The translations under genes were made by a program, and so were the position numbers. A DNA stretch of 64,000 bases from Dehalococcoidia bacterium (GTDB taxonomy: Bacteria; Chloroflexota; Dehalococcoidia; Bin125). The notes below the pieces were generated by a model that saw only the letters and a list, made by a program, of their open reading frames with translations, ran no database searches and was not told the origin of the DNA. Position 1 is the stretch's first letter, and each line of letters starts with the position of its first letter. Location: assembly GCA_965203165.1 (NCBI GenBank), contig OZ241849.1, positions 2,093,786-2,157,785 on the forward strand, given 5' to 3'. Positions 2,283-29,578 of this stretch are shown here, in pieces.

Positions 2283-2374
2283 TAAGCGCCCTCGCGAACC
2301 CTTGACAGAGCTGCAGATCCCACCCCACACCATCACCTCAGCCCAACCTCATCCCCTCCTCCCAAAAATTCATC

Positions 2375-2397
2375 CCTCCCCCCTGGAAGGGGGGAGG
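2375..2397 (-). terminator. intrinsic terminator (9-bp G/C stem CCTCCCCCC-TGGAA-GGGGGGAGG followed by a U5 tract on the minus-strand RNA)
   Basis: Perfect inverted repeat about 60 nt downstream of the 2458..3033(-) gene. The minus-strand read continues GAUGAAUUUUUGGG. Confidence 0.6.
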
Positions 2398-2457
2398 TTA
2401 GGTGGGGGGTGGAAGGCAGCGAGCGGGCACCAATCGCGCTACGCCACCCCCGCGCCC

Positions 2458-3033: not shown

Positions 3034-3087
3034 CGTCAGCTAGCCTACACTGTGCGTCTAACGACGAGACTGCGAGGGGAGGCGCAG

Positions 3088-7254: not shown

Positions 7255-7258
7255 CCCC

Positions 7259-8086: not shown

Positions 8087-8169
8087 ACCCCTGCCGCCCG
8101 CCCCACACCAGACCTCTTGGCAGCCGCTACACTGGGAGCGGGTCCCACAACCCGTAAGGAGGCGACGGA

Positions 8170-9703: not shown

Positions 9704-11327
9704 CCAAATCGCCGCCGAACCGATCGAGCAGCTTGAGCCGCCGAACACGCAGAGCGGCGATGTGGACGCGCTGCTGGAGACCCTGCCCGCGGCGATCCGG
9801 CGGGCCATCGAGGCCGAAGACGACTTCGACTCCCTGCTCGAGATCGTGCTCGACCTCGGCCGCCGGCCCAGCGCGCGCTACCGCGAGCGCGAACTCGAAC
9901 TGACCGACTCCGAAATCACCACCGCCGAACTGGAAGAAGTCGTCCGCCACCTGGGCGAGTTCGGCGACGACAACCGCGCCGGCATCGCCCGAACCCTGCA
10001 CCGCATCTCCTGCCTCCGCAACCGACAGCGCAAAATCGTCGGCCTCACCATGCGCGTCGGCCGCGCCGTCACCGGCTCGGTCGCGCTGATCGAGGACCTG
10101 ATCGCCGCCGGCGCGAGCATCCTCCTGCTGGGACGCCCCGGCGTGGGCAAAACGACCCTCCTGCGCGAGGCCGCCCGCGTGCTGGCCGAGCAGGGCAAGC
10201 GCGTCGTGATCGTCGACACCTCCAACGAAATCGCCGGCGACGGCGATATCCCCCACGCCGGCATCGGGCGCGCCCGCCGCATGCAGGTCGAAACCCCCGA
10301 GCGGCAGCACGCCGTCATGGTCGAGGCGGTGGAAAACCACATGCCCGAAGTGATCGTGATCGACGAAATCGGCACCGAGCTGGAAGCCCTGGCCGCACGC
10401 ACGATCGCCGAGCGCGGCGTCCAACTGGTCGCCACCGCGCACGGCAACACGCTCGCCAACCTGATGCTCAATCCCACCCTCGCGGACCTGATCGGCGGAA
10501 TTCAGACCGTAACCCTCTCCGACGAGGAGGCGCGCCGGCGCGGCACCCGCAAATCCGTGCTCGAGCGCAAAGCCCCGCCGACCTTCAACGCGCTGGTCGA
10601 AATCCAGTCGTTCACCCGCGTCGCCCTGCAGAGCGACGTCGGCTCCACGGTCGACGCGCTGCTGCACGGCGAGCCGGCCGAGCCCGAAATCCGCGAGGTT
10701 GATGAGCAGGGTGAGGTGCACAGCAGCCCCGGCGCGCAGCCGGAGGCCGCGCTCCCGGGCTTCTTCGCGGTGGACGCGCCCCGACACACCGGAGTCCGCA
10801 ACGGCGGACGCGACGCGCACCTGCGCCGGCGCGACCGCCGCCGCGCGCCCGAGCCGCCGACCGGTCCGCACCGCCGCATCTACCCACTGGGCATATCGGC
10901 GGCGCGCCTGCGCGAGGCCATTCGCGAAAACGGCGCCAACGCCTCGCTGGTCGAACGAATCGAAGACGCCGACATCGTGATGACCCTCCGCTCGGCCTTC
11001 CGCCGCCGTCCGCCCGAACTGCGCGAGGCCGAAGCCAAGCGGCTGCCGATCGTCGTGCTGAAGCACAACACCGTAATGCAAATGCAGCAAAGCCTCCGCG
11101 CCCTCTCGCAGGGCCGCGGCGGCGGGGACGACGAGCTGACCTCCGCGCTGGCCGAAGCGGAAGACGCAATCCAGGCGATCTACAGCGGAATGCGAGACCA
11201 CGTGGAACTCGCCCCGCGCGGCCCCTACATCCGCAAACTCCAGCACGAAATGGCCAGCCGCCAATCCCTCACCTCAGCCAGCCACGGCCAGGAACCCCAC
11301 CGAAGAGTGCGCATCCAGGCGCGCTGA
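9696..11327 (+). CDS. AAA+ ATPase of the Ycf45 / SpoIIIAA-like family with a C-terminal nucleic-acid-binding (R3H-like) region
   Basis: Walker A LLGRPGVGKTT and Walker B VIVIDEIG. ...LVATAHGNTL is conserved in the Ycf45/SpoIIIAA family. Overlaps the pdxT stop. Confidence 0.75.
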   Translation: MPDQIAAEPIEQLEPPNTQSGDVDALLETLPAAIRRAIEAEDDFDSLLEIVLDLGRRPSARYRERELELTDSEITTAELEEVVRHLGEFGDDNRAGIARTLHRISCLRNRQRKIVGLTMRVGRAVTGSVALIEDLIAAGASILLLGRPGVGKTTLLREAARVLAEQGKRVVIVDTSNEIAGDGDIPHAGIGRARRMQVETPERQHAVMVEAVENHMPEVIVIDEIGTELEALAARTIAERGVQLVATAHGNTLANLMLNPTLADLIGGIQTVTLSDEEARRRGTRKSVLERKAPPTFNALVEIQSFTRVALQSDVGSTVDALLHGEPAEPEIREVDEQGEVHSSPGAQPEAALPGFFAVDAPRHTGVRNGGRDAHLRRRDRRRAPEPPTGPHRRIYPLGISAARLREAIRENGANASLVERIEDADIVMTLRSAFRRRPPELREAEAKRLPIVVLKHNTVMQMQQSLRALSQGRGGGDDELTSALAEAEDAIQAIYSGMRDHVELAPRGPYIRKLQHEMASRQSLTSASHGQEPHRRVRIQAR

Positions 11328-12995: not shown

Positions 12996-14215
12996 CCGTC
13001 GTGCAGAAATACGGTGGCACCAGCGTCGGCTCAGTCGAGCGCTTGCAGGCCGTCGCCGAACGGATCGCGCAACGCGCCGCGGCAGGCCAGCCGATGGCGG
13101 TAGTGGTCTCCGCGATGGGCAAAACGACCGACGATCTGATCGCCCTGGCGCAGGCGATCAGCGCCCGCCCGCCGCGCCGGGAGATGGACATGCTGCTCGC
13201 GACGGGCGAGATGGTCAGCAGCGCCCTGCTGGCCATGGCCGTGCGCGAGCGGGGGCATGGCGCGGTCGCGCTGACCGGCGCGCAGGCCGGCGTCTTCACC
13301 GACGACACCTTTGGCCGCGCCCGCATCCGCGACATCGACACCGAGCGGATCGAGCGCGAGTTCGCCGCGGGCAACGCCGTGATCATCGCCGGCTTCCAGG
13401 GCACCAGCGGCGCGGCCGATTTCACCACTCTGGGCCGCGGCGGCTCCGACACCTCGGCGGTCGCGCTGGGCGCGGTGCTGAACGCGCAGCAGGTCGAGAT
13501 CTACACCGATGTGGACGGCGTCTACACCACCGATCCGCGCATCGAGCCCGACGCGCGGCGGCTGGCCGACATCGCCGCCGAAGAGATGCTCGAGGCCGCC
13601 GCGCAGGGCGCGGCGGTAATGCACCCCCGCGCCGTGGAATTGGGGCTGCTCTACGACATCCCCATCGTCGTCGCCTCGTCCTTCGCCGCCGGCGGCGCGG
13701 ACGGCACCATCATTCGCAAGGAGGTCCAAGTGGAACCCGAAGACCGCGTCCGAACCATCGCCCTCGACCGCGATGTCGCCTCGCTCACGCTGCGCCACGT
13801 GCCCGATCGCCCGGGCATCGCCGCCCAACTCTTCGGCCCGCTCGCCGACGCCGGAATCTCCGTCGACACGATCGTGCAAAACGCCAGCGAGGAGCGACTC
13901 ACCGACCTGACCTTCACGGTGACGCGCAGCGATCTCGAGCAGGCCTACGAGGCGGCCTCCCCGCTGGCCGACGAGCTGGGCGCGAAGGCGCTGCTGCGCG
14001 ACGACGACCTGGTCAAGGTCAGCCTGATCGGCACCGGCATGCAATCCGCGCCCGGCTACGCCGCGCTGATGTTCCGTACCCTCTCCGAAGCCGGCGTCAA
14101 CATTGAGCTGATCACAACCAGCGAAATCCGCATCACCGTCCTGGTCCGCTCCGAGCACGGCGAGCAAGCCGTGCGCCTGCTCCACCGCGCCTTCGCCCTC
14201 GACCAACCGCTCTAA
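12992..14215 (+). CDS. lysC: aspartate kinase
   Basis: VVQKYGGTSVG, VVVSAMGKTTDDL, two C-terminal ACT domains. GTGA overlap with thrB. Confidence 0.95.
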   Translation: MTVVQKYGGTSVGSVERLQAVAERIAQRAAAGQPMAVVVSAMGKTTDDLIALAQAISARPPRREMDMLLATGEMVSSALLAMAVRERGHGAVALTGAQAGVFTDDTFGRARIRDIDTERIEREFAAGNAVIIAGFQGTSGAADFTTLGRGGSDTSAVALGAVLNAQQVEIYTDVDGVYTTDPRIEPDARRLADIAAEEMLEAAAQGAAVMHPRAVELGLLYDIPIVVASSFAAGGADGTIIRKEVQVEPEDRVRTIALDRDVASLTLRHVPDRPGIAAQLFGPLADAGISVDTIVQNASEERLTDLTFTVTRSDLEQAYEAASPLADELGAKALLRDDDLVKVSLIGTGMQSAPGYAALMFRTLSEAGVNIELITTSEIRITVLVRSEHGEQAVRLLHRAFALDQPL

Positions 14216-14228
14216 AGCCCGTCCCCAC

Positions 14229-14276
14229 TTCCGCCACCCCCGCGCCCCCTCCCGTCATTCCTGCGCAGGCAGGAAC
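14229..14276. repeat. second copy of the REP-like element CCGCCACCCCCGCGCCCCCTCCCGTCATTCCTGCGCAGGCAGGAAC
   Basis: Near-identical to 2237-2282, including the 7-bp-stem hairpin. Intergenic between lysC and dnaE. Confidence 0.75.
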
Positions 14277-14374
14277 CCGCGCACCCCGCACCCCACCCAC
14301 ATCCCGCACCTTGACATAGAAACACCTATGACCACCCGCTAATCTCGCGTAGCGTCGCTCAAGGAAAGCCGCCC

Positions 14375-17300
14375 ATGTTCGCCCACCTGCACACCCACAC
14401 CGAATACAGCGAACTCGACGGCCTCGGGCGGATCGACGCGCTGGTTGAGCGCGCGAAAGCGCTCGGCCAGCAAGCGCTGGCGATCACCGACCACGGCAAC
14501 CTCTACGGCGCGATCGACTTCTACCAGGCGGCCCGCGGGGCGGGCATCCAGCCGCTGCTCGGCATGGAGGCCTACGTCGCGCCGGGCGACCGCCGCGATC
14601 GCGAGGCGCGCAGCGCCTCCCAGGCCGCCTACCACCTCGTGCTGCTCGCGCAGAACGCGCAAGGCTGGCGCAACCTGATCCAGCTCGCCACCCGCGCCCA
14701 CCTCGAGGGTTTCTACTACCGCCCGCGCGTCGACCGCGAGCTGCTGTCGCAGTACAGCGAGGGCGTAATCGTGCTCTCCGGCTGCCCCTCGGGCGAGCTG
14801 CACCGCGCGCTCGAGGCCGACGATCTGGTCGAGGCGCAGCGGGTGATCCAGTGGTACCGCGAGACATTTAGCGACCGCTATTACCTCGAAGTCCAGCGGC
14901 ACGACGAACTGACCCGCTACGAGCCGGTGCTGCAGCGCACCGTCCAGCTGTCGCGCGACCTGGACATTCCGCTGGTCGCCACACAGGACGCGCACTACTG
15001 CGAGCCGGGCGACCACGACGCACACGACCTGCTGCTCTGCATCGGCACCAACGCGACCCGCGATGAGGAGAAACGCTTCCGCTTCGAAGGGCAGGACTAC
15101 TACCTGACCGACGAGGCCTACATGCTGGAGAAATACGCGGATCTGCCCGAGGCGGTGACCAACACCCAACTGCTGGCCGAGCGCTGCGGCGTGGAGCTCG
15201 AGTTCGGCCGACTGCAACTGCCCGAACCGGATGTGCCGCCCGGCACATCCCCGATCGAGCACCTCGCCGATGTCGCCCGCGCCGGCCTGCAGCAGCGCTA
15301 CGCGCATCCCACCGAGCGGCATGTCGAGCGGCTCAACTACGAGCTCGAAGTGGTCCGCGAGACGGGCTTTGCCGAGTACTTCCTGATCGTCGCCGATTTT
15401 GCCCGCTTCGCGCGAGAGCGGAACATTCCCCAGACCGTGCGCGGCAGCGCCGCCGGCAGCCTGATCCTCTACTGCCTCGGCATCACCGACATCGACCCGC
15501 TCGAATACGGACTCGTCTTCGAGCGCTTCCTCAACCCCGAACGCCGCGAAATGCCAGACATCGACATGGATTTCGCCGACAACCGCCGCGACGAGGTGAT
15601 CCGCTACGTGGCCGAAAAATACGGGCGCGAGCGGGTCGCGCAGATCATCACCTTCGGCACGCTGGGCGCAAAGGCGGCAGTGCGCGACACCGGGCGCGCG
15701 CTGGGCATGAATCTGAACGAGATCGACCGGATCGCGCGGATGATCCCCAACGTGCTCAACATCACGCTGCAGGAAGCAATCGATCAGTCCGCGGAACTGC
15801 GCGACGCAGGGCGCGGCGATCCCGAAGTGCGCGAGCTGCTGCATCAGGCGCAGCGGCTCAACGGGGTCGTGCGCCACGCCAGCACGCACGCCGCCGCCGT
15901 CGTCATCTCCCGCGATCCGCTCAGCGAAAACGTGCCTCTGCGCCGACCGGCCAACCAGGGCGACGACGACAAGTCGATTCCGATGACCCAGTGGGCGATG
16001 GATCAGTGCGCAGCGGTCGGTCTGCTGAAGATGGACTTCCTGGGCCTCTCCAACCTGACCATTCTGCACGAGGCGGTCGAGCTGATCCGCGAATACGAGG
16101 GCGTGGAAATCGACCCGCTGACGCTGCCCGAAACGGGCGAGCAGGCCGAAAAGGCCTTTGCGATGCTGGAAACCGGCGACACGTTCGGCGTGTTCCAACT
16201 CGAGTCCGGCGGAATGCGCAACACGGTCGCCGACCTGAAACCGAGCTCGATCCCGGACTTGGCCGCGCTCGTTGCCCTTTACCGGCCCGGGCCTATGGAA
16301 CACATCCCGCGCTTCATCGACGGCAAGCACGGACTCGCGCCGATCGCCTACCCGCACGACGATCTCGCGGAAATCCTGGACGAGACCTACGGAGTGATCG
16401 TCTACCAGGACCAGGTGCTCCAGATCGCGCGCAAGTTCGCCGGCTACACCCTCGGCCAGGCCGATGTGATGCGCAAAGCGATGGGCAAGAAAATCCCGCA
16501 GGTGATGCGCGCCGAGCGGGACAACTTCCTGCGGGGAGCGGCGGAGCGCGGCTACTCGCAACGCGACGCCCAGACCATCTTCGAGCTCATCGAGCCGTTC
16601 GCCGGCTACGCCTTCAACAAGGCGCACGCCGTCTGCTACGGCGCGATCGCCTACCAGACCGCCTGGTTCAAAGCCAACTACTCCGCGCCCTACATGGCCG
16701 CGGTGCTGCGCGCCGCGGCCGGCAACTCGGACCGCATCCGCGCCGCCGCCGCCGAGTGCGCCCGGCTCAAAATCAAGCTGCTGCCGCCCGACGCGAACAA
16801 CTCCGAAGCCAGCTTCAGCCTCGAACGCTTCGCCGACGGCCGCAGCGCGATCCGCTTCGGCCTGGCCACGGTCAAAAACGTCGGCCGCGCCGCGGTGGAG
16901 CCGCTGATCGCGGAGCGTGAGGCCAACGGACCATTTGAGTCGATCGACGATCTGAGCGAACGAATCGACGCGCGCGCGCTGAACCGCCGCGCTCTCGAGT
17001 CGCTGGCCAAGGCGGGCGCGTTCGACTCGCTGCCGCGCTCAAACGGCTCGGCCGAGCCCATGTCGCGCGGCGAGATTGTCGCGGGCGCGGAAGACATCTC
17101 GCGCCGCGCGCGCCGCGCGCAGGAACTGCGCGAAAGCGGTCAGACCTCGATGTTCGACCTGTTCGGCAACGAGGTCGCCACGCCCAAACCGCTGATCAAC
17201 ACACAGGAAGAGACCGTGGAAGTGACCGCCTCGGAGCAGCTGAACTGGGAGCGCGAGCTGCTGGGCGCGTACGTTTCGCGCCACCCGCTGCAAGCGGCGG

Positions 17301-18010
17301 CGGTCGAGCTGCAGTCGCAGGTCAGCCATTCGCTGGCCGAAATCAACGAAGACCTGCTGGGCGAGCCGCTGACCGTCGCCGGGCTAGTCAACAACATCCG
17401 CCAGCTGACGACTAGGCGCGGCGATCAGTTTGCCGCGGTCGAGATCGAGGACCTCTCCGGGGCGCAGGAACTGACTGTCTGGCCCGAGCAGTGGCAGCAA
17501 ACCCGCGAGATGTGGAATCCCAACCAGATCATCGTGGCCGATGTTGTGGTCCGCTCGCGGGGTAATGATCAACTGTCGCTGGCGGTCAACGCGGCGCGGC
17601 GTTGGTCGGAGGCGGCTGAAGGCGGGGAGGCCTTGGAAAATAGGGCGGCGCGCGCGCCCAGGCCGCAGGTGGTGCCACCGCCTCCCCCGGAGCCGGTGCG
17701 GCGGCGCGCGGCGCCGATCGGCGGCAGCAGCGGCTCGGCGCTCTGGATCACGCTGCGCGACGACGGTGATCGGGCCGCCGGCCAGGATTTGCTGCGACGG
17801 ATGGGCGATCTGATCCAGGGCATGCCGGGCGACGATCCGGTGTTTCTGCGCATTGAGGGCCCCTCGGGCGGGACGCTGCTGGCGTTGCCGGAGCAGTGGA
17901 GGACGGCGGCCAACTTTGCGATGGTGACGGTGCTGAACGGCCTGCTGGCGAAGCAGGGCGAGGCGGAGTTGGCCGCGCCACTGAAAAACGCCGCCGCCGC
18001 GGGCCGCTGA
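14375..18010 (+). CDS. dnaE: DNA polymerase III alpha subunit
   Basis: N-terminal PHP domain HLHTHTEYS...ITDHGNLYG; polymerase core; 1211 aa. Confidence 0.97.
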   Translation: MFAHLHTHTEYSELDGLGRIDALVERAKALGQQALAITDHGNLYGAIDFYQAARGAGIQPLLGMEAYVAPGDRRDREARSASQAAYHLVLLAQNAQGWRNLIQLATRAHLEGFYYRPRVDRELLSQYSEGVIVLSGCPSGELHRALEADDLVEAQRVIQWYRETFSDRYYLEVQRHDELTRYEPVLQRTVQLSRDLDIPLVATQDAHYCEPGDHDAHDLLLCIGTNATRDEEKRFRFEGQDYYLTDEAYMLEKYADLPEAVTNTQLLAERCGVELEFGRLQLPEPDVPPGTSPIEHLADVARAGLQQRYAHPTERHVERLNYELEVVRETGFAEYFLIVADFARFARERNIPQTVRGSAAGSLILYCLGITDIDPLEYGLVFERFLNPERREMPDIDMDFADNRRDEVIRYVAEKYGRERVAQIITFGTLGAKAAVRDTGRALGMNLNEIDRIARMIPNVLNITLQEAIDQSAELRDAGRGDPEVRELLHQAQRLNGVVRHASTHAAAVVISRDPLSENVPLRRPANQGDDDKSIPMTQWAMDQCAAVGLLKMDFLGLSNLTILHEAVELIREYEGVEIDPLTLPETGEQAEKAFAMLETGDTFGVFQLESGGMRNTVADLKPSSIPDLAALVALYRPGPMEHIPRFIDGKHGLAPIAYPHDDLAEILDETYGVIVYQDQVLQIARKFAGYTLGQADVMRKAMGKKIPQVMRAERDNFLRGAAERGYSQRDAQTIFELIEPFAGYAFNKAHAVCYGAIAYQTAWFKANYSAPYMAAVLRAAAGNSDRIRAAAAECARLKIKLLPPDANNSEASFSLERFADGRSAIRFGLATVKNVGRAAVEPLIAEREANGPFESIDDLSERIDARALNRRALESLAKAGAFDSLPRSNGSAEPMSRGEIVAGAEDISRRARRAQELRESGQTSMFDLFGNEVATPKPLINTQEETVEVTASEQLNWERELLGAYVSRHPLQAAAVELQSQVSHSLAEINEDLLGEPLTVAGLVNNIRQLTTRRGDQFAAVEIEDLSGAQELTVWPEQWQQTREMWNPNQIIVADVVVRSRGNDQLSLAVNAARRWSEAAEGGEALENRAARAPRPQVVPPPPPEPVRRRAAPIGGSSGSALWITLRDDGDRAAGQDLLRRMGDLIQGMPGDDPVFLRIEGPSGGTLLALPEQWRTAANFAMVTVLNGLLAKQGEAELAAPLKNAAAAGR

Positions 18011-18247
18011 GCAGGCAAATGACGAACGAGCGTCCTGTTATCGTGATGGCGCGGCACGGCCGCCCCCGGGTGGAAAGGGCGCAGCGGGGGCGACAGAAGC
18101 GCTGTTCCGACGCGACAGCGGCGATTATTGTGGTGGACAGCCGACGACAGCGTGGATGCATAATGTCTTATCGCATGTCCAGGCTGCACCAGCACAGCCG
18201 CCGCCGCAGACTACGCAACGGCGGCGCGCTCTAGGAAGAGATGCGTC

Positions 18248-18802
18248 ATGAAGGTCGTGTTTTTCGAAGAGGTTGAGGGCACCGCGCAGGTCGGTGAGGT
18301 GAAGGAGGTGAAGAATGGTTTTGCCCGCAATTACCTCCTGCCGCGCGGTCTGGCTGGTGCGCCGACGCGCAATAACTTGGCCCACGCCGAGCGACTGGCG
18401 AAGGCCGACGCGATTCGGCAGGCCAAGCTGGACGGCGACGCCGCGCCGATCGCGGCAGCGATCGATGGGCAGGAATTCACCTTCCGTGCGCGCGTGGGCG
18501 AGCAGGGGCGGCTGTTCGGCTCGGTCACCGCGCGGGACATCGCCGAGCGGCTCTCGGAGCGGGCTGGTGGGGCAATCGAGCACCGCCAGGTGCAGCTGGC
18601 GCAGGCAATCCGCCAGCTGGGCAGCGAAGAAGTCCGCGTGCGGCTCACTCGCAACGTGTTCGCCAGCGTCACGGTTGTTGTCGAACCGGACGAGGAGAGC
18701 TTTGAGCCAACCATCGATGAGGTGGTTGAGGAGCTCGACGCCGAGGAAGCAGCGGCTGACGCCGCTGAACAGCAGAGCGAAGCCGCGGCCGTAGAGGCCT
18801 AA
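18248..18802 (+). CDS. rplI: 50S ribosomal protein L9, with an acidic C-terminal tail
   Basis: MKVVFFEEVEG...G..V..V.NGFARNYLLP. The tail is EELDAEEAAADAAEQQSEAAAVEA. Confidence 0.9.
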   Translation: MKVVFFEEVEGTAQVGEVKEVKNGFARNYLLPRGLAGAPTRNNLAHAERLAKADAIRQAKLDGDAAPIAAAIDGQEFTFRARVGEQGRLFGSVTARDIAERLSERAGGAIEHRQVQLAQAIRQLGSEEVRVRLTRNVFASVTVVVEPDEESFEPTIDEVVEELDAEEAAADAAEQQSEAAAVEA

Positions 18803-18834
18803 GCCGGGGGTGGGCGCCGCCCCCGGAAACGGGG

Positions 18835-20352
18835 GTGGTCATGGTCACGAGCGAACCCCGCGCGGCCCCAGGCGTGCATAGCGGCCTGCCGCAGGATGTG
18901 GCCGCGGAGCGCGCCGTGATCGGCGCGATCCTGGCCGAAGAAGGCGTGCTCCAGCGGATCACTCCGATTCTGCTGCCCGCCGATTTCATCGATCCGCGGC
19001 ATCGGCTGCTCTACACCGCGTCGCTCGATCTGTGGGATCGGGGTGAAGCGGTCGATTCGGTCACGGTGGCGGCCGAGACGGCCCGCAAGGGCTGGATCGA
19101 CGAAGTCGGCGGGCAGCCCTACATCACGCAGCTGGTCGCCGAGCTGCCCACCACCGTTGGCGCGGAGCATTACGCGCGGGTAGTGCAGCGCACGGCGACC
19201 TACCGCGACATGCTGCGCGCGGCGGGAGACATCGGCGAACTGGCCTACCGCGCCGATCCGAATGTTGACGCCTCGCTGAACGAGGCAGTGGAGAAGCTCT
19301 ACTCAGTGCGCGGCGCGGAGCAGCGGCGCGATTTCTCGATGCTCCAGGACCTGCTGGTCGATGTGCTGCAGGACGCGGAAGATCCTGCGGGGAGCGCAGC
19401 GGAGCCGACCCGCACCGGTTTCGGCGATCTCGATCGGCTGCTCAACGGCGGCATCCACGCTTCCGATCTACTGGTCTTGGCGGCGCGCCCTGCCGTGGGC
19501 AAGTCGGCGCTGGCGCTGACGATCGCGCGCAACGCCGCGTTGGGCCAGGGCGTGTCGGTGGCGATGTTCAGTCTGGAAATGTCGGCCGAGCAGGTGGCGG
19601 CGCGGCTCGTCTCGGCCGAATCGGGCGTGGAAAACAGCCGCCTGCGGGTGGGCCGCCACACCGACGAGCAGCAAGCCGACATTTCGCGGGCGATCGGCCT
19701 GCTGAGTCGGGCGGAGCTCTACATTGACGACACGGCCGGCCAAACGCTGGCGGAGATTCGCGCCAAGTCGCGCAATCTGCACAAGCGGCTAATCGATCAG
19801 CGCGGGCGGCAAGCTGCGGAAGGCGCGGAGCCGCGCGGATTGGGGCTGATCATCGTCGATCACATTCAGCTGGTGCATGCCTGGTCGCGGACGCCGGTCG
19901 AGACCAACCGGGTGGCGGAGTTGAGCGTGATTTCGCGCACGCTGAAGGAGATTGCGCGCGAGCTGCGGGTGCCGGTGCTGGCGATTTCGCAGCTCTCTCG
20001 CGCAGTTGAGCGCCGCCGTCCCCCGGTGCCGATGCTGAGCGATCTGCGCGAGAGCGGCTCGATCGAGCAGGATGCCGATGTGGTCGTCTTTATCTACCGT
20101 GCCGACATGTACAAGCGCGACGAATACGAGGACGAGGTGATCGCCGATCCGATGCAGGAAGCGGCAGGGCAGGGGCAGGTCGCGCAGCTGCTGATCGCCA
20201 AGCACCGGCACGGGGCGGTGGGCGCAGTGGATGTGCGCTTCGTGCCGCAGGTGGCCCGCTTCGAGGATTTCTTTATGCAAGAGGAACCGCCGCCCAACGC
20301 GGGCTGGAGCGAGCCGCCCGGCGGCGCTGCGGACGGAAACGGACATGGCTGA
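18835..20352 (+). CDS. dnaB: replicative DNA helicase DnaB
   Basis: ERAVIGAIL N-terminal domain, Walker A ARPAVGKSALAL, LIIVDHIQL, SQLSRAVE. Confidence 0.95.
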   Translation: MVMVTSEPRAAPGVHSGLPQDVAAERAVIGAILAEEGVLQRITPILLPADFIDPRHRLLYTASLDLWDRGEAVDSVTVAAETARKGWIDEVGGQPYITQLVAELPTTVGAEHYARVVQRTATYRDMLRAAGDIGELAYRADPNVDASLNEAVEKLYSVRGAEQRRDFSMLQDLLVDVLQDAEDPAGSAAEPTRTGFGDLDRLLNGGIHASDLLVLAARPAVGKSALALTIARNAALGQGVSVAMFSLEMSAEQVAARLVSAESGVENSRLRVGRHTDEQQADISRAIGLLSRAELYIDDTAGQTLAEIRAKSRNLHKRLIDQRGRQAAEGAEPRGLGLIIVDHIQLVHAWSRTPVETNRVAELSVISRTLKEIARELRVPVLAISQLSRAVERRRPPVPMLSDLRESGSIEQDADVVVFIYRADMYKRDEYEDEVIADPMQEAAGQGQVAQLLIAKHRHGAVGAVDVRFVPQVARFEDFFMQEEPPPNAGWSEPPGGAADGNGHG

Positions 20353-21046
20353 GCTGTCCGATGCCCAAAAACCGCGCTTCGGCGGCTTCTCCGCAGCCGC
20401 GCCAGCTATCCCGATTCCGACGGCGCTGCTGCACGAAATCGCGCCGCAGATGACTGATCCGGCGGAGCTGCTGACGACGCTCTACGCAGTGGCGGCGCTC
20501 CAGCGCGTGCGGCGTTTTCCTCGCCTGCTGTCGGTCGCGGATCTGCGCGCAGAGCGGGCGCTGGTGGATGCGCTCGGCTCGATGGTCCCGGAGCGCAGCG
20601 TGGACCAAGCGCTGGAGGACGGTCTGGCCGCCGCGGCGGCGCGGGGCACGCTGCTCCGCTCGGCCGCGCCGCAGGACTGGATTGCGCTGAACAGCGCCGA
20701 TGGGCGGCGGGCGATGGCGCATTGGGCGCATCGGCCGGCGCCCCCGTCGACGCCGGCGCCGGCCCCGCGTGGCGAGCCGATCATCGCGCTCTACGAGGAC
20801 GCGATCGGGCCGCTGCCGCCCTCGCTGGCCGCAGAACTGCATGAGGTGGCTGCGGCCTACCCGCCGAACTGGATCGCCGATGCGTTTGCGGAGGCGGTGG
20901 AGATGAATGTCCGCAACTGGCGCTACGTGCGCAGCATTCTGCAGCGATGGCAGCAAGAGGGGCGTGAGTATGCGTCGGATCGATCAACTGATGGGCGATC
21001 CGGGCGATCCGGACCATCCCGCTATGACCACCTCATCCAGCGTTGA
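20346..21046 (+). CDS. DnaD-like replication initiation/primosome protein (DDBH2 C-terminal domain)
   Basis: The C-terminal YPPNWIADAFAEAVEMNVRNWRYVRSILQRW matches the DnaD/DnaB(Bsu) DDBH2 pattern (Y...I...W, NW.YV..IL..W). Its ATG sits inside the dnaB stop context (ATGGCTGA). Confidence 0.7.
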
Positions 21047-22367
21047 GCGCGGCCGCGAGCGGTTCTGGCGTCCGGCGGGGCCCGACGCCGAATGCCCGCG
21101 GTGCGGCGGGACGGGCTATGTGCGGCGGCGAGTGCCCGTGGGCCACGAGCTGTTCGGCCGCGCGACGCCCTGCGAGTGCGCGGAGCGGCTGGCCGCGCAG
21201 CGGCTGGCCGCGCAGCTGCAACGGCTGAGCAACCTCGGCCCTCTGACCGAACTGCGCCTGCCGACGGAGGAAATCGAGCAGTCGGACGACTTGGCGGCGG
21301 CCTGCGAGTTCGCCGACGAGACGGCGGTTGAGCGCTGGTTGGTGGTGGTCGGCAAGCCCAACTCGGGGCGCACGCAGCTGGCGGCGGAATTGGCCAATCG
21401 ACGGCTGGAGCGAGGGCGCTCGGCGCTTTATTTCGTGGCCGCTGACCTACTCGACCGGCTGCGCGCGGCCTATCGGCAGGATGCGGAGCTGGCCTATCCG
21501 GTGCTGTTCGAGCATGCGCGAGAGGCGGAGTTCCTGGTCATCGACGATGTGGACATGGCCAATCCAACCGAGTGGGCGCGGGAAAAGCTGTTTCAGCTGC
21601 TCAATCACCGGCGCAACGCAGGGCTGCGGACCGTGCTGATCGCCGGCGAGCATATGAATAACGGTCTCGACCTCGCCCGCTGGCTGTCGGTGGGGCCGGG
21701 CGCGCTGCGGATCGCGCTGGGCGCGGGGCGGGCGGTCCGCTACCGGCAAGTGGGCGAGCTGCGGCGCGAGCTGCTGGCGCGCTACACGTTCGACAACTTC
21801 CGCGTGCATTCCGGGGACGGCCCGCCGCCGGACTCTTTGAACCTCAAGCTGGTCAAGTGCATCGTGGAAGACTGGGCAGCCGAGCCGCGCGGCTCGCTGA
21901 CGCTGATCGGCGGCACCGGCACCGGCAAGACGCACCTCGCGGCCGCCGCGGCGAATGCCGCGCTGGAGCGCGGCGAGAGTGTGTGGTTCGCGGTCGTGCC
22001 CGACCTGCTCGACATGCTGCGGCGCACCTACCAGGCGGATGCGGAGCAGAGCTACGACGAGCTGTCCGCGTCGCTGCGCGACGCGGGTTTGCTGGTGCTG
22101 GACGATTTCGGCGCACACTCGCCGACAGCCTGGGCAGAAGAGAAGCTCTACCAACTCTGCGCGGCGCGGTATGTGGCGGAGCGCCCGACGATGTTCACGA
22201 CCAACCTGCAACCAGACAACCTTGATGCGCGGATCGCATCGCGGCTGTCGGACAAGGAGACCGGGAAGCTGTTGGAGATCAAAGCGCCGGATTACCGCAC
22301 CGGTCTGCGCCCGCAGCCGACCGGGGATTCGCCGCGCGGCCGCCGCCGCAACGGCGGGCGCGCGTAG
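21024..22367 (+). CDS. DnaC/DnaI-like helicase loader with two tandem AAA+ modules and an N-terminal Cys4 zinc-binding region
   Basis: CPRCGG...CEC; module 1 VVVGKPNSGRT ... FLVIDDVD; module 2 LIGGTGTGKTHLA ... LLVLDDFG ... TTNL. The start is uncertain (ATG 21024 or 20970). It overlaps the upstream stop. Confidence 0.75.
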   Translation: MTTSSSVERGRERFWRPAGPDAECPRCGGTGYVRRRVPVGHELFGRATPCECAERLAAQRLAAQLQRLSNLGPLTELRLPTEEIEQSDDLAAACEFADETAVERWLVVVGKPNSGRTQLAAELANRRLERGRSALYFVAADLLDRLRAAYRQDAELAYPVLFEHAREAEFLVIDDVDMANPTEWAREKLFQLLNHRRNAGLRTVLIAGEHMNNGLDLARWLSVGPGALRIALGAGRAVRYRQVGELRRELLARYTFDNFRVHSGDGPPPDSLNLKLVKCIVEDWAAEPRGSLTLIGGTGTGKTHLAAAAANAALERGESVWFAVVPDLLDMLRRTYQADAEQSYDELSASLRDAGLLVLDDFGAHSPTAWAEEKLYQLCAARYVAERPTMFTTNLQPDNLDARIASRLSDKETGKLLEIKAPDYRTGLRPQPTGDSPRGRRRNGGRA

Positions 22368-22385
22368 AGCTTCCGAGGGCGGCAT

Positions 22386-23087
22386 TCAGAGCGGATCGGC
22401 CAGCTCGACGGTCGGAGCAAGACTCCCCTCAATCCACTCCTCCCCGTCCGACCACACCTCTTTCTTCCAAATCGGCACCACCGCCTTCAGCCGATCAATC
22501 CCGTAGCGGCACGCATCAGTCGCCTCCGCCCGATGCGCCGAAGAAACAGCCACCCCCACACTCGCCTCCCCGATCTCCAAACGCCCCACGCGGTGCTGCA
22601 TCGCGATCTCCACAACATCCCACCGCTCCCGGATCTCATCCGCAATCCGCCGCATAATCCGCGCCGCCATCTCCGGGTAGGCGTCGTATTCGAGGTAATC
22701 AACCTCGCGCCCCAGGTTGTTGTCGCGCACCACGCCGAGAAAGACGGCCACCGCGCCCGCTTCGGGCCGCAGCACCAGCTCATGCAGCGCATCGGCGCTG
22801 ATCCGCTCCTCCACGATCCGAAAGCGCGCGTCTCCCTCCTCACCGCCGCTCACGGGCGGAATCAGCGCGATCTGGTCGCGGCTGGTGACGACGTAATCGG
22901 CCGGCACATATTCGGCGTTGACCGCGTACATCACGGAGTCCCGCATCGCCGCGGCCTGCGGGAAGCGATCGAAGAGCGCCTCCCCAACCGCCCCGGCCGT
23001 GGCCGGTTCCGGCAACCCGCTGAGCGTCAGTTCGCGCGCCCCCACGGTCTCGGCGAGCGATGCGAAGAGCCGTACGCTGATCTGCAT
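22386..23087 (-). CDS. molybdopterin synthase MoaD-MoaE fusion protein
   Basis: The N-terminal ~83 aa form a ThiS/MoaD fold ending ...IALIPPVSGG. The MoaE domain follows (FLGVVRD...YEAY..MA...EIAMQHRVGRLEIGE.SV..AVSSAHR..A). Confidence 0.85.
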   Translation of the reverse strand: MQISVRLFASLAETVGARELTLSGLPEPATAGAVGEALFDRFPQAAAMRDSVMYAVNAEYVPADYVVTSRDQIALIPPVSGGEEGDARFRIVEERISADALHELVLRPEAGAVAVFLGVVRDNNLGREVDYLEYDAYPEMAARIMRRIADEIRERWDVVEIAMQHRVGRLEIGEASVGVAVSSAHRAEATDACRYGIDRLKAVVPIWKKEVWSDGEEWIEGSLAPTVELADPL

Positions 23088-23817
23088 GTCGGCAGTCTAC
23101 CGAGTGCGGCGCTGGGGTTCGCGGCTCGCCCGCGCGGGCTCGCTGGCGCTCGACCTGACCCTGCCCCCGACCTGCGCCTCGTGCGGCGCCGTGGGTCAAA
23201 TCCTCTGCGAGCGCTGCCGCGCGCGGCTGGAGCGCGCCGAAGGGCCGCGCTGCCCGCGCTGCTGGCTGCGCGCCGAGGGCGTCTGCCGCGCCTGCATGGA
23301 GCGCCCGCCCGCCCTGCGCCAGCTGCGCGCGCCCTTTCGCTACGACGGCGTGGCGCGTCAACTGGTGCTCACCCTCAAGTACTCCGGCGTGCGCCGCGCC
23401 GCCGCGCCGCTCGTCGAAGAAGCGCACGGCCCGCTGGTGCGCCGCGACATCGAACTGATCGCGCCCATTCCCATGACCGGCTGGCGACGCCGCACGCGGG
23501 GCGGAAACCACGCCGCGCACCTGGCCGCCGCGCTCGCTGCGCAGCACGGAATCAAGCTGGACGACACGCTGCTCGCCCGCCGCGGCCGGCGCTCCAAACA
23601 GCAAGCCCGCATGTCCGACATCCGCCAGCGGCGCGCCAATATGCAGGACGCGTTTCACGTCGTCGATCCGCAGCGCGTGCAGGGCCGCGCGGTGCTGCTG
23701 GTCGACGACGTAGCCACGACGATGGCGACGCTCGAATCGGCCGCCGCGGCGCTGCTCGCGGCCGGCGCGGCAACGGTCGACGGCTGGGCCGCGACGCGCG
23801 AGGACCTGCGTGACTGA
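23086..23817 (+). CDS. comF: ComF-family protein (ComFC-like, phosphoribosyltransferase domain with N-terminal Cys-rich region)
   Basis: CASCG...C.RC...C.RC then the PRTase motif VLLVDDVATTMATL. Its ATG overlaps the divergent moaDE start by 2 nt. Confidence 0.8.
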   Translation: MSAVYRVRRWGSRLARAGSLALDLTLPPTCASCGAVGQILCERCRARLERAEGPRCPRCWLRAEGVCRACMERPPALRQLRAPFRYDGVARQLVLTLKYSGVRRAAAPLVEEAHGPLVRRDIELIAPIPMTGWRRRTRGGNHAAHLAAALAAQHGIKLDDTLLARRGRRSKQQARMSDIRQRRANMQDAFHVVDPQRVQGRAVLLVDDVATTMATLESAAAALLAAGAATVDGWAATREDLRD

Positions 23818-24931
23818 GGCAAAATTCCTGCTCTGCCTGCGCCCCGCCCCCGCCGCGTCGGAGGCCGAGCAAATGCTGGAAGAAGCGCGCGCCGCCGTAC
23901 TGCTCGACACCGCCGCCTGCGCTCAGGCGGCCGGCTTCGGCAAAATCGAAATCCACACCACCGCGCCTGAGCTGTTCGCGCAGGCCGGAGCTGTCGTGCG
24001 CCGGACGGACCCTCGCGCATCAATCGGCGCGGTGGTCGCAGCCGCCGCCGGCGCAGGCCCGCTCTGCTACGCCGGCGCGGGAATGCCGGCGATGACCACC
24101 AACGACTGGCGCAGCCTGCGCGAGCGGATCGAGGCCGGCCAGTCGCTCGCCAACAACATCCACTCCTGCGATCTGCTCGCCCTCGCCGACCCCGCGCCGC
24201 TCGCCGCGCTGGCCGGCGAAACAAGCGACAACGCCTTCGCCCGCCGCCTGCGCGACGACCTGGGGCTGGAAATCGCGCAGCTGGAGCGCTCCGCGGCGAC
24301 CCTGCTCGACCTCGACACGCCGACCGATCTCGCCCTGCTCGACCTGGCCCAGGAAAACGGCGTGCTCGAGCTCGGCCCGCGCCTCTCCGAGGCGCTGCAA
24401 CGCTGGACCGCGCGCCTCGCGCCCTGCCGCGAGCGACTCGCCGCGGCGCTCGACGCGCTCACCGAGCGCGAGCGGCAGGTCATGGCAATCGGCCGCGTCA
24501 GCGCCGCGATCTGGTCCGCGCTCGACCGCGACACCGCAGCGCGAATCCGGGTGATCTCCGAAGAGCGCGGCCTGCGCAGTCGCGCCGCTACGGCGGCACC
24601 CCCTCGCTCGCTGCTCGGATTGCACGGCGAGGCCGTAGGCGCAGCCGCGCTGATCGCCGGCCTGGCCGAACTCGCCGACGCAGTGATCTTCGACGCCCGC
24701 CCGCTGCTCGCCCACCTCGGCTGGGGCCGATCGCGCGCCGATCGCTTCGCCGCCGACCTGGGCGAAGCAGCCGCGATCGCAGAGCCGCCCCTGCGCGAAC
24801 TCGTCGAGGCCGTCGCCGCCGCTCCGATCCCGATCGCGCTGGGCGGCCACTCGCTCGTCTCGGGCGGCTTGCTGGCCGGCATCGACATCGCCTGGACGCG
24901 CCGCGAACAGCGCGATCTGTGCAAGCGATAA
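23810..24931 (+). CDS. hypothetical protein (possible MobA/CofC-like nucleotidyltransferase fold: LDLDTPTDL motif)
   Basis: High GC3 coding signal; 373 aa. The D-x-D-T-P-x-D-L motif resembles the C-terminal signature of MobA/CofC-type NTP transferases. No other motif recognised. Confidence 0.5.
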   Translation: MTEAKFLLCLRPAPAASEAEQMLEEARAAVLLDTAACAQAAGFGKIEIHTTAPELFAQAGAVVRRTDPRASIGAVVAAAAGAGPLCYAGAGMPAMTTNDWRSLRERIEAGQSLANNIHSCDLLALADPAPLAALAGETSDNAFARRLRDDLGLEIAQLERSAATLLDLDTPTDLALLDLAQENGVLELGPRLSEALQRWTARLAPCRERLAAALDALTERERQVMAIGRVSAAIWSALDRDTAARIRVISEERGLRSRAATAAPPRSLLGLHGEAVGAAALIAGLAELADAVIFDARPLLAHLGWGRSRADRFAADLGEAAAIAEPPLRELVEAVAAAPIPIALGGHSLVSGGLLAGIDIAWTRREQRDLCKR

Positions 24932-27218: not shown

Positions 27219-28244
27219 ATGACGACAGAACCAGAAGCACCGGCGCCCGCTGCCGAAACGGCTGAAACGGCTGTCGAGCCGCAGCCGACTGAGCAGCCTC
27301 CGGCCGCTGCGGTTCCCGCCGTTGAGCCGGAGCCGGCCGCGCCGGTGCCAGCGCCGCAGCGGGTGACGCCCGGACCCACGACATCCGCCGGGGAGCGTGG
27401 ACCGCAAGTAGTTGAGCGTGCGCGGCGGCGCACGCGGCGGCGGCGCGCGCCGGTCTTTACGCCCCGCGAAGTCGAGAACATCGACTACAAGGACGTCGAC
27501 AAGCTGAAGAAGCTGATCTCCGATCGGGGCAAGATCGAGCCGCGCCGCAAGACGGGGCTCACGGCGAAAGATCAGAAGAAGCTGGCGCGGGAGATCAAGC
27601 GGGCGCGGTACATGGCGCTGCTGCCGTACACAGCGGATCACATGCGGCAGACGAGCCGCTACCGAATTGCGACGCGGGCGGCGGAGCGCGCCGCGCGCTA
27701 CGCAGAGGCGGAACCGCGCCCGGTTGAGGCTGCGCCTGCCGTTGCTGCACCGCCTGCGGACGCGCCCACCGCGGAAGCTGCCGCCGCTGCGCCGCCCGCC
27801 GCCGCTCCCGCGCCTGATGCCGCGCCCGAACCGGCGGCGGCTCCGGCCGAGCCTGTTGCGGAAGCCGCGCCGGCGGTGCCGGAGGCTGCCCCCGCAGCGG
27901 AAGCCGTACCTGCCGTTGCAGCGCCGCCTGCCGCTGCGCCCGAACCGGCGGCGGCTCCGGCCGAGCCTGTTGCGGAAGCCGCGCCGGCGGTGCCGGAGGC
28001 TGCCCCCGCAGCGGAAGCCGTACCTGCCGTTGCAGCGCCGCCTGCCGCTGCGCCCGAACCGGCGGCGGCTCCGGCCGAGCCTGTTGCGGAAGCCGCGCCG
28101 GCGGTGCCGGAGGCTGCCCCCGCAGCGGAAGCCGTACCTGCCGTTGCAGCACCGCCTGCCGCTGCGCCCGAGCTGGCGGCGGCTCCGGCCGAGCCTGTTG
28201 CGGAAGCCGCGCCGGCTGCGCAGCCGGACTCCGATCCGGCATGA
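27219..28244 (+). CDS. rpsR: 30S ribosomal protein S18 with long Pro/Ala-rich N- and C-terminal extensions (341 aa)
   Basis: Canonical S18 core [58 protein letters not shown] at aa 80-137. A single ORF with RBS GAGGAGG. The C-terminal 200 aa are encoded by 114-bp tandem repeats. ATGA overlap with hom. Confidence 0.75.
27822..28240 (+). repeat. tandem repeat, period 114 bp, about 3.7 near-identical copies, inside the rpsR coding region
   Basis: The unit GCGCCCGAACCGGCGGCGGCTCCGGCCGAGCCTGTTGCGGAAGCCGCGCCGGCGGTGCCGGAGGCTGCCCCCGCAGCGGAAGCCGTACCTGCCGTTGCAGCGCCGCCTGCCGCT recurs at 27822, 27936, 28050 and 28164 (partial). Confidence 0.9.
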
Positions 28245-29578
28245 GCGGGCGCGCCGATGTTGGCGTGGGCCTGCTCGGCCTCGGCGTCGTGGGCGGGCGC
28301 GTGTTCGACGAGCTGCGCCGCAACGGGGCGTCGTTCGCGCAGCGCGCTGGACGCAACCTCTCCGTCCGCGCCGTTGCAGTCCGCGATGTCGAGCGGCGGC
28401 GAGAGCAAATCGACGGCTGCGCGGCGCTGATCGACGATCCGCTCGCTGTCTGTACGCGCGGCGATGTGGATCTGGTGGTTGAGCTGATGGGCGGGGAACA
28501 ACCCGCAGCGGAGTGCATCGCGGCGGCGATCGGGGCCGGCAAATCGGTGGTCACTGCGAACAAGGAAGTGATGGCCAAGCACGGGCCGCGGCTGCTCGAT
28601 CTGGCCCGCGAGCGAGGCGTCGAGTTGCGCTACGAGGCGAGCGTGGGCGGCGGCATCCCGATCATTGGCGTGCTGCAACGCGAGTTGCGCGCCAATGAAG
28701 TGCGCTGCGTGCGCGCAATCATCAACGGCACGACCAACTACATGATCACGGAGATGTCGCAGCACGGCGCCTCGTATGAAGATGCCTTGGCGCAGGCGCA
28801 GGCGCAGGGCTACGCGGAGGCGGATCCGACCAACGATGTGGAAGGAATCGACGCGGCCTACAAGCTGGCGATCCTGGCGTCGCTGGCGTTTCACGCGCGG
28901 ATCGCGCCGGAGCAGGTGCACCGCGAGGGCATCCGCGCGCTCAGCGCGCGCGACTTCCGGCATGCCGCGAATTTGGGCTACACGATTCGGATGCTGGCGA
29001 CAGCGCGGCGCACGCCGCGCGGCATCGACCTGCGCGTCCACCCCACGCTGATTCCGACGCACGATCCGATGGCGCGGGTCGATGGCGTGCTGAACGCAGT
29101 GGCGGTCGAAGGCGATTTGCTGGGCACGGTGGTGCTCGAGGGCGAGGGCGCAGGGGCGGGGGCGACGGCCAGCGCGGTGCTCGCGGATGTGCTGGATGTC
29201 ATCGGCGCGGGTTCGGCAGGAGCGCCGCGCGCCCCGGCAGCGCAGGCGGGAACGGCGGCGCTGCTGCCGCTCGCGGAAGTCTGTCTGCCGACCTACCTCC
29301 GCCTGGCGGTGCCGGATCGCGCGGGGGTGCTCGCCGAATTGGGCCAGGCCTTTGCCGAGCAGGGGGTGAGCATCGCCTCTGTGCTGCAAACGCCGCGCCC
29401 GGACGCAGCAGAGAGCGAGCCGCCGGCGGCGGAACTGATCATCACGACCCACGCCGGACCGGACGACGCGATGGATCGGGTGCTGGCCTCGCTGGCAGAC
29501 TCCGACAGCGTGCTTGAGCTGGGCGTGCGGCTGCGGATCGAGGACGAGCGCGACGCAGGAATGGCGGGGGCGTGGTGA
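28241..29578 (+). CDS. hom: homoserine dehydrogenase
   Basis: [15 protein letters not shown]-binding motif, catalytic core, C-terminal ACT domain. Confidence 0.95.

Follow-up and report, generated by a model that had tools for sequence, protein, structure and literature searches.

The probable helicase-loading region and its genes

We analysed a 64,000-nucleotide (nt) stretch of the genome of a Dehalococcoidia bacterium (contig OZ241849.1, positions 2,093,786 to 2,157,785; hereafter the window), in which the gene for the replicative helicase DnaB is followed by a DnaD-type gene and by an open reading frame (ORF) for a putative helicase loader of the DnaC/DnaI family with two AAA+ modules in one chain. 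The G+C content is about 69% and even over the whole 64-kb window. The order on the + strand is dnaE, rplI, dnaB, the DnaD-type gene and the tandem-AAA+ loader ORF, which ends at 22367. We regard it as likely, with good confidence, that this region is the core chromosomal helicase-loading operon of a Chloroflexota bacterium, made up of rplI, dnaB, a DnaD-type adaptor and a DnaC/DnaI-family loader. Its principal features are the following (aa, amino acids).

18835..20352, + strand: dnaB, replicative DNA helicase (GTG start at 18835, or ATG at 18841)
20345..21046, + strand: DnaD-type protein of 233 aa, N-terminal winged-helix-like domain and C-terminal DDBH2 domain
20915..20950, + strand: DDBH2 signature NWRYVRSILQRW (Y194-x3-I198-x3-W202)
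20970..22367, + strand: putative tandem-AAA+ helicase loader, DnaC/DnaI family, from its probable start (Pfam IstB_IS21 and E. coli DnaC matches)
21093..21179, + strand: Cys4 zinc ribbon CPRC-x22-CEC, presumed helicase-binding module
21321..21752, + strand: AAA+ module 1 (Walker A GKPNSGRT at 21351-21374, with Lys→Arg; Walker B LVIDDV at 21534-21551)
21774..22313, + strand: AAA+ module 2 (Walker A GGTGTGKT at 21909-21932; Walker B LVLDDF at 22092-22109)

The identity of the helicase is supported by a score of 423 bits against TIGR00665, above the equivalog cut-off of 385, and by matches to Pfam DnaB (PF00772, 7.8e-26) and DnaB_C (PF03796, 7.8e-83). Its stop codon overlaps the ATG of the DnaD-type gene at 20345 by 8 nt (ATGGCTGA, 20345-20352); the initial annotation, made from the letters and their translations, had recognised this overlap and placed the start one position too far downstream, at 20346. 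Through the overlapping stop and start codons, dnaB, the DnaD-type gene and the loader gene are probably coupled in translation. Neither σ70-like promoters nor intrinsic terminators were found in a scan of 17900-22600 that assumes σ70-type promoters, which is weakly consistent with a single transcription unit, and no Rfam family matched within 14000-24000.

Two AAA+ modules in one chain

The loader matches Pfam IstB_IS21 (PF01695) with 85.7 bits in two separate stretches (cut-off 24.1), and each half alone matches DnaC, IstB, DnaI and DnaA models. The two modules are 41% identical to each other over 119 aa (BLASTP, E=8e-22), in agreement with the two AAA+ modules proposed by the initial annotation. 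The best sequence match in the PDB is E. coli DnaC (6qel, 2.5e-13), which aligns with module 2 only, through DnaC residues 47-220. A structure model computed with AlphaFold2 (AF2; predicted local distance difference test, pLDDT, 89; predicted template-modelling score, pTM, 0.65) likewise presents two α/β modules, preceded by a β-hairpin and a long helix. Foldseek searches of this model against the PDB returned single-module matches (DnaI 2w58, the best, with TMt 0.73; DnaC 6qem_G with TMt 0.67; DnaA; IstB) or p97-type matches, and no solved tandem DnaC-type structure.

An artefact, in which two genes would have been fused by a sequencing or assembly frameshift or by a missed stop, is practically excluded. 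The loader frame is open from 20907 to 22367 and contains no internal stop, so the split into two genes that the initial annotation had named as its own refutation does not exist. More than 190 distinct homologues from independent assemblies carry the same two-module frame, mostly in 410-490 aa, and a four-module relative (P0395) is identical in two independent samples. A frameshift, or two separate genes, was rejected on the open frame and on the architecture shared by these homologues.

We read the state of the catalytic motifs from the E. coli DnaC residue map of PMC8213410 and the alignment of the loader to DnaC. The equivalent residues are as follows (ssDNA, single-stranded DNA).

Walker A, DnaC K112: module 2 K302; module 1 R116
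Walker B, DnaC E170: module 2 D360/D361; module 1 D174/D175
Sensor I, DnaC N203: module 2 N394; module 1 no Asn
Arg coupler, DnaC R216: module 2 R403; module 1 none alignable
Arg finger, DnaC R220: module 2 R407; module 1 none alignable (R219 nearby)
Sensor II, DnaC R237: module 2 R425; module 1 'YR' in the equivalent position
ssDNA tetrad, DnaC K143/F146/S177/Y179: module 2 R333/Y336/T368/W370; module 1 R147/Y150/T182/W184

Judged by its residues, module 2 is catalytically complete, with all the catalytic residues of E. coli DnaC and an Asp at the position of E170; the intact Walker A and B motifs assigned to it by the initial annotation thus stand. All 192 family sequences have K302, W370 and R407, so that module 2 keeps its Walker-A Lys and its Arg finger throughout, and 171 of them have R403. 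The R-x3-R pair formed by coupler and finger is essentially invariant in DnaC/DnaI and has no clear homologue in IstB (PMC8213410).

Module 1, on the other hand, is very likely a pseudo-ATPase in the lineage of the window, as read from its motifs. The degenerate P-loop GKPNSGRT, on which the initial annotation had based the same assignment, carries the change of the DnaC K112R mutant, in which ATPase activity is abolished and DnaB loading remains at the wild-type level (PMC8213410). The module is nevertheless under constraint and not decaying: 15 of its columns are invariant among 98 homologues, against 19 in module 2, and it is 76% and 71% identical to its counterparts in the closest relatives, where module 2 reaches 83% and 80%. 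In the same 98 sequences R147 and W184 of module 1 are invariant, as are R333 and W370 of module 2.

The N-terminal region of the loader

Three start codons come into question for the loader gene. The public annotation uses 20991 (458 aa, P0001) and the initial annotation used 21024, from which it correctly derived a 23-nt overlap with the DnaD-type gene. We place the start at ATG 20970, because a conserved N-terminal motif begins there and a purine-rich stretch, AGAGGGG, lies just 5' of it. This motif, M-x-[RS]-[LI]-[GD]-[DE]-[IL]-L, precedes the zinc ribbon in most of the 79 loci collected below (MESLGDILRR, MKRLDEIL and MRRLDQLA in relatives, MRRIDQLMGD in the window). The loader would then probably have 465 aa and overlap the DnaD-type gene by 77 nt; a gene call of 465 aa is present in the same 90% cluster (P0183).

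Past the motif, within 20970-21092, the chain has a patch rich in Ser and Thr (TTSSS, consensus 'TSS'), conserved in the family and yet predicted to be disordered (pLDDT <50). It could serve as a docking peptide or a phosphorylation site.

The Cys4 zinc ribbon follows at 21093-21179. Of its cysteines, C50 is invariant across the 98 homologues, and C24, C27 and C52 are each conserved in at least 90% of them. The AF2 model places the four cysteines on a β-hairpin (residues 32-49) followed by a long helix (residues 51-68). The four-cysteine module of the initial annotation is therefore present; its likeness to DnaI holds by analogy only. A search of the N-terminal 110 aa gave no Pfam DnaI_N match at E≤10 and a weak match to DnaJ_CXXCXGXG (CxxCxGxG, E=0.0079).

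The DnaD-type protein

The second gene encodes a protein of DnaD size with a DDBH1-like and a DDBH2 domain, as indicated jointly by curated cut-offs, profile matches, motif residues and the predicted fold. It passes the cut-offs of both PF07261 (27.1 bits, cut-off 22) and TIGR01446 DnaD_dom (28.4, cut-off 24.95), and its NWRYVRSILQRW reads as YxxxIxxxW, the motif that defines DDBH2 (PMC2978336), in keeping with the initial annotation. The six most-conserved residues of the B. subtilis DnaD C-domain, A166, A170, Y180, I184, L185 and W188 (PMC2978336), are all matched at identical spacing by A180, A184, Y194, I198, L199 and W202. In 37 DnaD-type homologues W192, Y194 and L199 never vary, and conservation of I198 and W202 is at least 90%. 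The conserved Thr/Ser seven residues past the motif (PMC2978336) is absent at W202+7, where the protein has Tyr209; past the motif only the Gly at +4 (G206) is invariant in the 37 homologues.

A profile built from these homologues matches B. subtilis DnaD (8ojj, 5e-8) and the DnaD-like domains 2zc2 (2e-7) and 2i5u (3e-6). The AF2 model (pLDDT 83.5) consists of an N-terminal domain of helices and a β-wing (helices 26-100, β-wing 103-115, trailing helix 118-128) and a C-terminal helical bundle. Its top Foldseek match is a full-length DnaD model (9a5c_B, E=9.8e-4), and it aligns with 2zc2 at TMt 0.73 and a root-mean-square deviation (rmsd) of 1.8 Å. The N-domain shows weak Foldseek matches to the winged-helix proteins PadR, MarR and TubR, and profile and Pfam searches found no sequence-level match to the DnaD N-domain. 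DDBH1 of DnaD is a winged helix with a helix-strand-helix extension for tetramerisation; the N-domain here is predicted to be DDBH1-like by fold only.

Conservation of the arrangement in Chloroflexota

We scanned one genome per species, obtained at least 590 matches to the loader and kept 79 loci, which come from Dehalococcoidia, Anaerolineae, Ardenticatenales, Caldilineaceae and Chloroflexia. The best 120 matches of a whole-protein search are two-module relatives only, of about 410-490 aa, and the named matches are labelled as Chloroflexi, Chloroflexota or Dehalococcoidia 'ATP-binding protein' or 'DnaC'. The closest species-level relative is a Dehalococcoidia metagenome-assembled genome (MAG) with 74% identity (L001).

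A DnaD-like gene lies directly upstream of the loader gene on the same strand in 77 of the 79 loci. Taking the best alignment, dnaB is found at most 1.3 kb upstream in 63 of 70 loci; the remaining seven comprise four in which dnaB is split by an insert, two in which it lies further upstream and one (L053) with none in range. An L9 homologue precedes dnaB in 57 of the 68 loci with enough upstream DNA. The gene triad is therefore conserved well beyond the window, which settles a check proposed by the initial annotation. That annotation had also called the arrangement non-standard; it does differ from the textbook single-module loader, but the number of species-level matches and the adjacency of the DnaD-like gene show that it is usual for the phylum. 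The two-module loader with an adjoining DnaD-like gene is a conserved arrangement of Chloroflexota and not a one-off.

Individual loci depart from the common pattern. No DnaD-like gene is detectable between dnaB and the loader in L063 (gap of 170 nt, 4828-5001) and L068 (500 nt, 4500-5001), and the Caldilineaceae locus L053 has a DnaD-like gene and no dnaB within 5 kb. The MAGs that contain L023 and L063 bear the labels Acidimicrobiia and Proteobacteria, probably as a result of mis-binning or mislabelling.

In L011, L064, L071 and L078 dnaB is interrupted by an insert of about 500 bp (dnaB at about 2200-4240), and the DnaB product of L080 (1959-3785, 608 aa) carries Pfam Intein_splicing. From these split genes and the splicing domain, DnaB inteins seem recurrent in the phylum; dnaB of the window is without an intein.

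Replication modules of Firmicutes phages typically contain a trio of DnaD-like, DnaC-like and DnaB-like genes. Together with IstB_IS21 being the best-scoring Pfam family of the loader, this could suggest an accessory ATPase derived from a mobile element or phage, either a helper of the IS21 IstB type or part of a prophage replication module, which came to lie beside dnaB by chance. Bacterial dna[CI] genes have indeed been proposed to be domesticated from phage (PMC5109545). We find this reading very unlikely for the present locus. Neither transposase nor phage genes were seen among the neighbours of the operon in the window, whose G+C is uniform. The gene order recurs in 77 of 79 species-level loci next to rplI-dnaB in several classes. 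The loader falls short of the IS21 helper model (NF038214, 121 vs 200 bits) and has in module 2 the Arg coupler that lacks a clear homologue in IstB; DnaB, above the cellular cut-off, scores below that of the phage_DnaB model (347 vs 499 bits). The IS21 IstB or prophage module was rejected on neighbours, curated cut-offs and synteny. The loader gene is now a fixed chromosomal gene, and a phage origin in the distant past is possible.

Variation in module state and number

The sequences of the two modules point to one ancient internal duplication: across 192 family members, the nearest neighbour of a module 1 is another module 1 in every case, and that of a module 2 is another module 2 in 185. 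In the Walker A of module 1, 118 sequences keep the Lys and 74 carry Arg, and all 74 of the latter also lack an aligned Arg finger in that module.

We then applied a strict test of four residues (Walker-A Lys, second Walker-B Asp, sensor-I Asn and Arg finger) to the 192 sequences. Both modules are intact in 8, only module 2 in 115 and neither in 46. In the other 23 it is module 1 that is intact and module 2 that fails, mostly at sensor I. Based on these classes, and on distant relatives in which both modules are intact, degeneration is lineage-specific and can run in either direction. The internally asymmetric loader put forward by the initial annotation consequently holds for the lineage of the window and not for the family as a whole.

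The number of modules varies as well. With the N-terminal 110 aa as query we retrieved 439 representatives, among which are relatives with a single AAA+ module (P0212, P0224, P0230, P0259, P0331), with four (P0311, P0360, P0395) and with six (P0340, 1224 aa). Two of the single-module proteins, P0212 and P0331, share the N-terminal helix and the zinc ribbon of the family, but between these two elements they have 200-430 aa of low-complexity sequence rich in Pro, Ala and Gln. The genes of P0340, P0360 and P0395 lie directly after dnaB, and after the DnaD-like gene where one is called. In the four- and six-module chains the expanded modules are of the intact module-1 type, and the last module is degenerate. 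The multi-module genes have these coordinates.

4518-8192: multi-module gene in locus L080
4001-6538: multi-module gene in locus L081
1644-4181: multi-module gene in locus L082
4001-6520: multi-module gene in locus L083

A model for helicase loading and for the packing of the modules

Homology, motif states, internal duplication, conservation and synteny were computed here, and from this point we infer binding and catalytic roles, stoichiometry and module packing. By analogy, the binding and catalytic roles would be those known from DnaC, DnaI and DnaD. The overlapping operon with dnaB and the conserved synteny are indirect support for a loader that binds and loads the replicative helicase. 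Domain homology and operon position suggest that the DnaD-type protein may bind DnaA and DNA and recruit the helicase-loading proteins.

The loader would be built from a short conserved N-terminal helix, a Ser/Thr-rich tail, the Cys4 zinc ribbon and two AAA+ modules of the initiator clade. Its N-terminal part would dock on DnaB, and both AAA+ modules could contact ssDNA via the conserved tetrad. ATP binding and hydrolysis by module 2 would act as the loading and release switch, as in DnaC. Module 1, its catalysis lost in the lineage of the window, would act there as a non-hydrolysing scaffold and ssDNA-binding module. The DnaD-type adaptor would bring the helicase-loader complex to origin DNA opened by DnaA, or to restart sites, as in Bacillus.

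Several observations weigh against this interpretation or its details. The loader scores below the curated NCBIfam cut-offs for DnaC (NF005931, 103 vs 357 bits) and DnaI (NF006505, 72 vs 228), so that it is not an equivalog of either protein. With its best model, PRK08116, it reaches 175 against a cut-off of 189, and it exceeds only the cut-off of the broad Pfam family IstB_IS21. The N-terminal part has no DnaI_N match, as noted above, and helicase binding by it is presumed from its position only. As to module 1, Arg219 (LARWLS) lies near the expected Arg finger, so that complete loss of the finger in the subclade of the window is not certain, and a Walker-A Arg may still be compatible with nucleotide binding. 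Finally, the motif states favour one model of packing and the variation in module number another.

One of these models, which corresponds to the internally asymmetric loader of the initial annotation, places both modules of a chain next to each other in a single DnaC-like spiral, so that three chains would supply six modules per DnaB hexamer, with live and dead sites alternating. We hold this to be quite possible, though only tentatively. If a protomer that normally assembles head to tail is duplicated in tandem, the simplest outcome is an oligomer with covalent links. Variants with four and six modules are found at the same syntenic position after dnaB, and six modules would equal one complete DnaC-type hexamer; four, on the other hand, cannot be evenly divided into six. 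The linker between the modules is short, about 14-20 residues from the sensor-II 'YR' to the next 'TFDNF', and the pTM of the AF2 model suggests some defined packing of the domains. The catalytic residues argue the other way. In an alternating spiral every ATP site of module 2 would take its Arg finger from a module 1. Since all 74 sequences with a Walker-A Arg also lack the finger of module 1, no site in that clade would be catalytically complete, and the Arg finger that module 2 has kept in all 192 sequences would point into a dead site. This co-loss argument is weak, however, as it may reflect only one or two evolutionary events.

Alternatively, six copies of module 2 could form a DnaC-like spiral under DnaB, with module 1 as a separate layer, or as a spacer between the zinc domain and module 2, that binds ssDNA or the DnaD-type protein. 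We consider this homotypic, tiered packing possible and rather doubtful. Module 1 has lost Walker-A Lys, sensor-I Asn, Arg coupler and Arg finger together, all of which are intact in module 2, and such joint loss is expected if each composite ATP site is formed by a pair of like modules. A single helicase-binding domain on each chain would also fit the 6:6 contacts of the DnaB-DnaC complex (PMC8213410). Four- and six-module variants, however, would need four or six tiers, which seems unlikely. The Foldseek matches to p97/Cdc48 have an rmsd of 12-20 Å, and the predicted monomer is unlike stacked tandem AAA+ proteins. We know of no precedent for stacked tiers among initiator-clade AAA+ proteins. 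The co-loss favours contacts between modules 2 of different chains, whereas the variable module number and the short linkers favour concatenation side by side; in view of the four- and six-module variants and of a possible single evolutionary event, the co-loss is not clear evidence for such contacts.

Taking up the adjacent placement of the modules in one spiral again, we tentatively propose, without expecting it to prevail, that Chloroflexota load the helicase by a DnaC-type spiral of covalently concatenated modules, whose number per chain (two as a rule, four or six in some lineages) has been tuned by evolution together with the number of live ATP sites. Every second module would then be a dead, ssDNA-binding pseudo-ATPase in the lineage of the window, and elsewhere the last module would be the dead one. 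If this is true, the six-module protein is a single-chain hexameric loader with one helicase-binding domain. The family would then offer a natural series from which to learn the number of helicase contacts and of active ATP sites that a ring loader needs, with a loading geometry not seen in the DnaC, DnaI or DciA systems.

Gene neighbourhood

Upstream of dnaB the window contains two further genes of the ordered block.

14375..18010, + strand: dnaE, DNA polymerase III α subunit, recognised by reading the ORF translation
18248..18802, + strand: rplI, ribosomal protein L9 (Pfam Ribosomal_L9_N and Ribosomal_L9_C), first gene of the conserved rplI-dnaB block

Homologues of dnaE, 57-68% identical to it, lie upstream at the corresponding place in L002, L003 and L007. 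The main replicative polymerase, helicase, adaptor and loader thus lie within 8 kb in the window and likewise in these three loci. The flanking housekeeping genes are pdxS, tmk, a GHMP kinase, aspartate kinase, a ComF-type phosphoribosyltransferase, glyA and hom.

Convergent with the loader gene, on the - strand at 22386-23087, is a MoaD(ThiS)-MoaE fusion gene, with 18 nt between the two stop codons and no terminator-like hairpin detected between them; this neighbour recurs in several related loci (L002, L003, L006). Two ORFs at 23810-24931 (373 aa) and 27667-28482 (271 aa) have a high third-position GC and no Pfam match at E≤1e-4. Upstream of tmk, at 9696-11327, is a protein of 543 aa in which a SpoIIIAA-like P-loop ATPase is joined to a phosphotyrosine-phosphatase-like domain (PF25516) and an R3H domain.

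Implications

Bacterial helicase loading is understood from E. coli DnaC and from Bacillus DnaI with DnaD and DnaB(Bsu), where six separate one-module loaders serve one helicase hexamer. Throughout the phylum studied here, the loader joins two modules in a single polypeptide, and its gene keeps a fixed place in an operon with those of the helicase and a DnaD-type adaptor. This protein family holds natural versions of hand-made mutants: a module with the Walker-A Lys→Arg change, chains in which one module has lost sensor I or the Arg finger, and chains of one, two, four and six modules. Through it, the number of ATP sites and helicase contacts that loading needs, and the role of asymmetry within the loader, become testable. 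The DnaD-type adaptor is a standard replication component outside Firmicutes too. For annotation, proteins of this family are at present labelled merely 'ATP-binding protein' or 'DnaC', and their start codon is often set too far downstream.

Comparison with known systems

In 2016 Brézellec et al. described a dna[CI] gene of Chloroflexi as domesticated (PMC5109545). The cultured Chloroflexi entries of their supplement list one dna[CI] and no dciA for Anaerolinea, Chloroflexus, Roseiflexus, Dehalococcoides, Dehalogenimonas, Sphaerobacter and Thermomicrobium, and three dna[CI] and no dciA for Herpetosiphon. This gene very probably belongs to the same family as the loader of the window. Their report covers neither the two-module architecture nor the pseudo-ATPase module, the DnaD-type partner or the operon; its main text does not contain the words 'tandem' or 'duplicat', and we found no description of a tandem-AAA+ helicase loader, or of this Chloroflexi architecture, in open-access papers and bioRxiv.

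With type II AAA+ proteins (p97/Cdc48, NSF, ClpB) the loader shares two modules per chain, one of which is often catalytically weak, and Foldseek aligns both in order. It belongs, however, to the initiator and not to the classic clade; at an rmsd of 12-20 Å the placement of the modules differs, and only the AAA+ core is shared. IstB, the IS21 helper (5BQ5, 8Q3W), represents the best-scoring Pfam family (PF01695) and the same AAA+ subfamily fold. The loader differs from it in having no IstA partner, a score below the NF038214 cut-off, the Arg coupler of module 2 and chromosomal synteny with dnaB.

Like DnaI of Bacillus and Geobacillus (4M4W, 2W58), the loader has a zinc-binding N-terminal domain followed by a DnaC-type AAA+ module, and like Bacillus DnaD (8OJJ) its partner is a co-occurring, predicted DDBH1-DDBH2 protein of similar size (233 vs 232 aa). 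The zinc ligands are CxxC...CxC, while those reported for DnaI are C67, C70 and H84 (PMC1636449). Unlike the Bacillus system, the AAA+ modules are in tandem, all three genes form one overlapping operon with the helicase, and no protein of DnaB(Bsu) type (DDBH1 and two DDBH2) lies between dnaB and the loader.

E. coli DnaC (6QEL, 6QEM) shares the initiator/loader-type AAA+ fold, and module 2 has the equivalents of K112, N203, R216, R220, R237 and of the ssDNA tetrad; in both proteins the helicase-binding region, presumed in the case of the loader, is N-terminal to the ATPase. In contrast to DnaC, the loader has two AAA+ modules per chain, of which module 1 is naturally 'K112R-like', a Cys4 zinc ribbon in place of the helical helicase-binding domain and DD instead of DE in Walker B, and its gene is linked to dnaB and to a DnaD-type gene.

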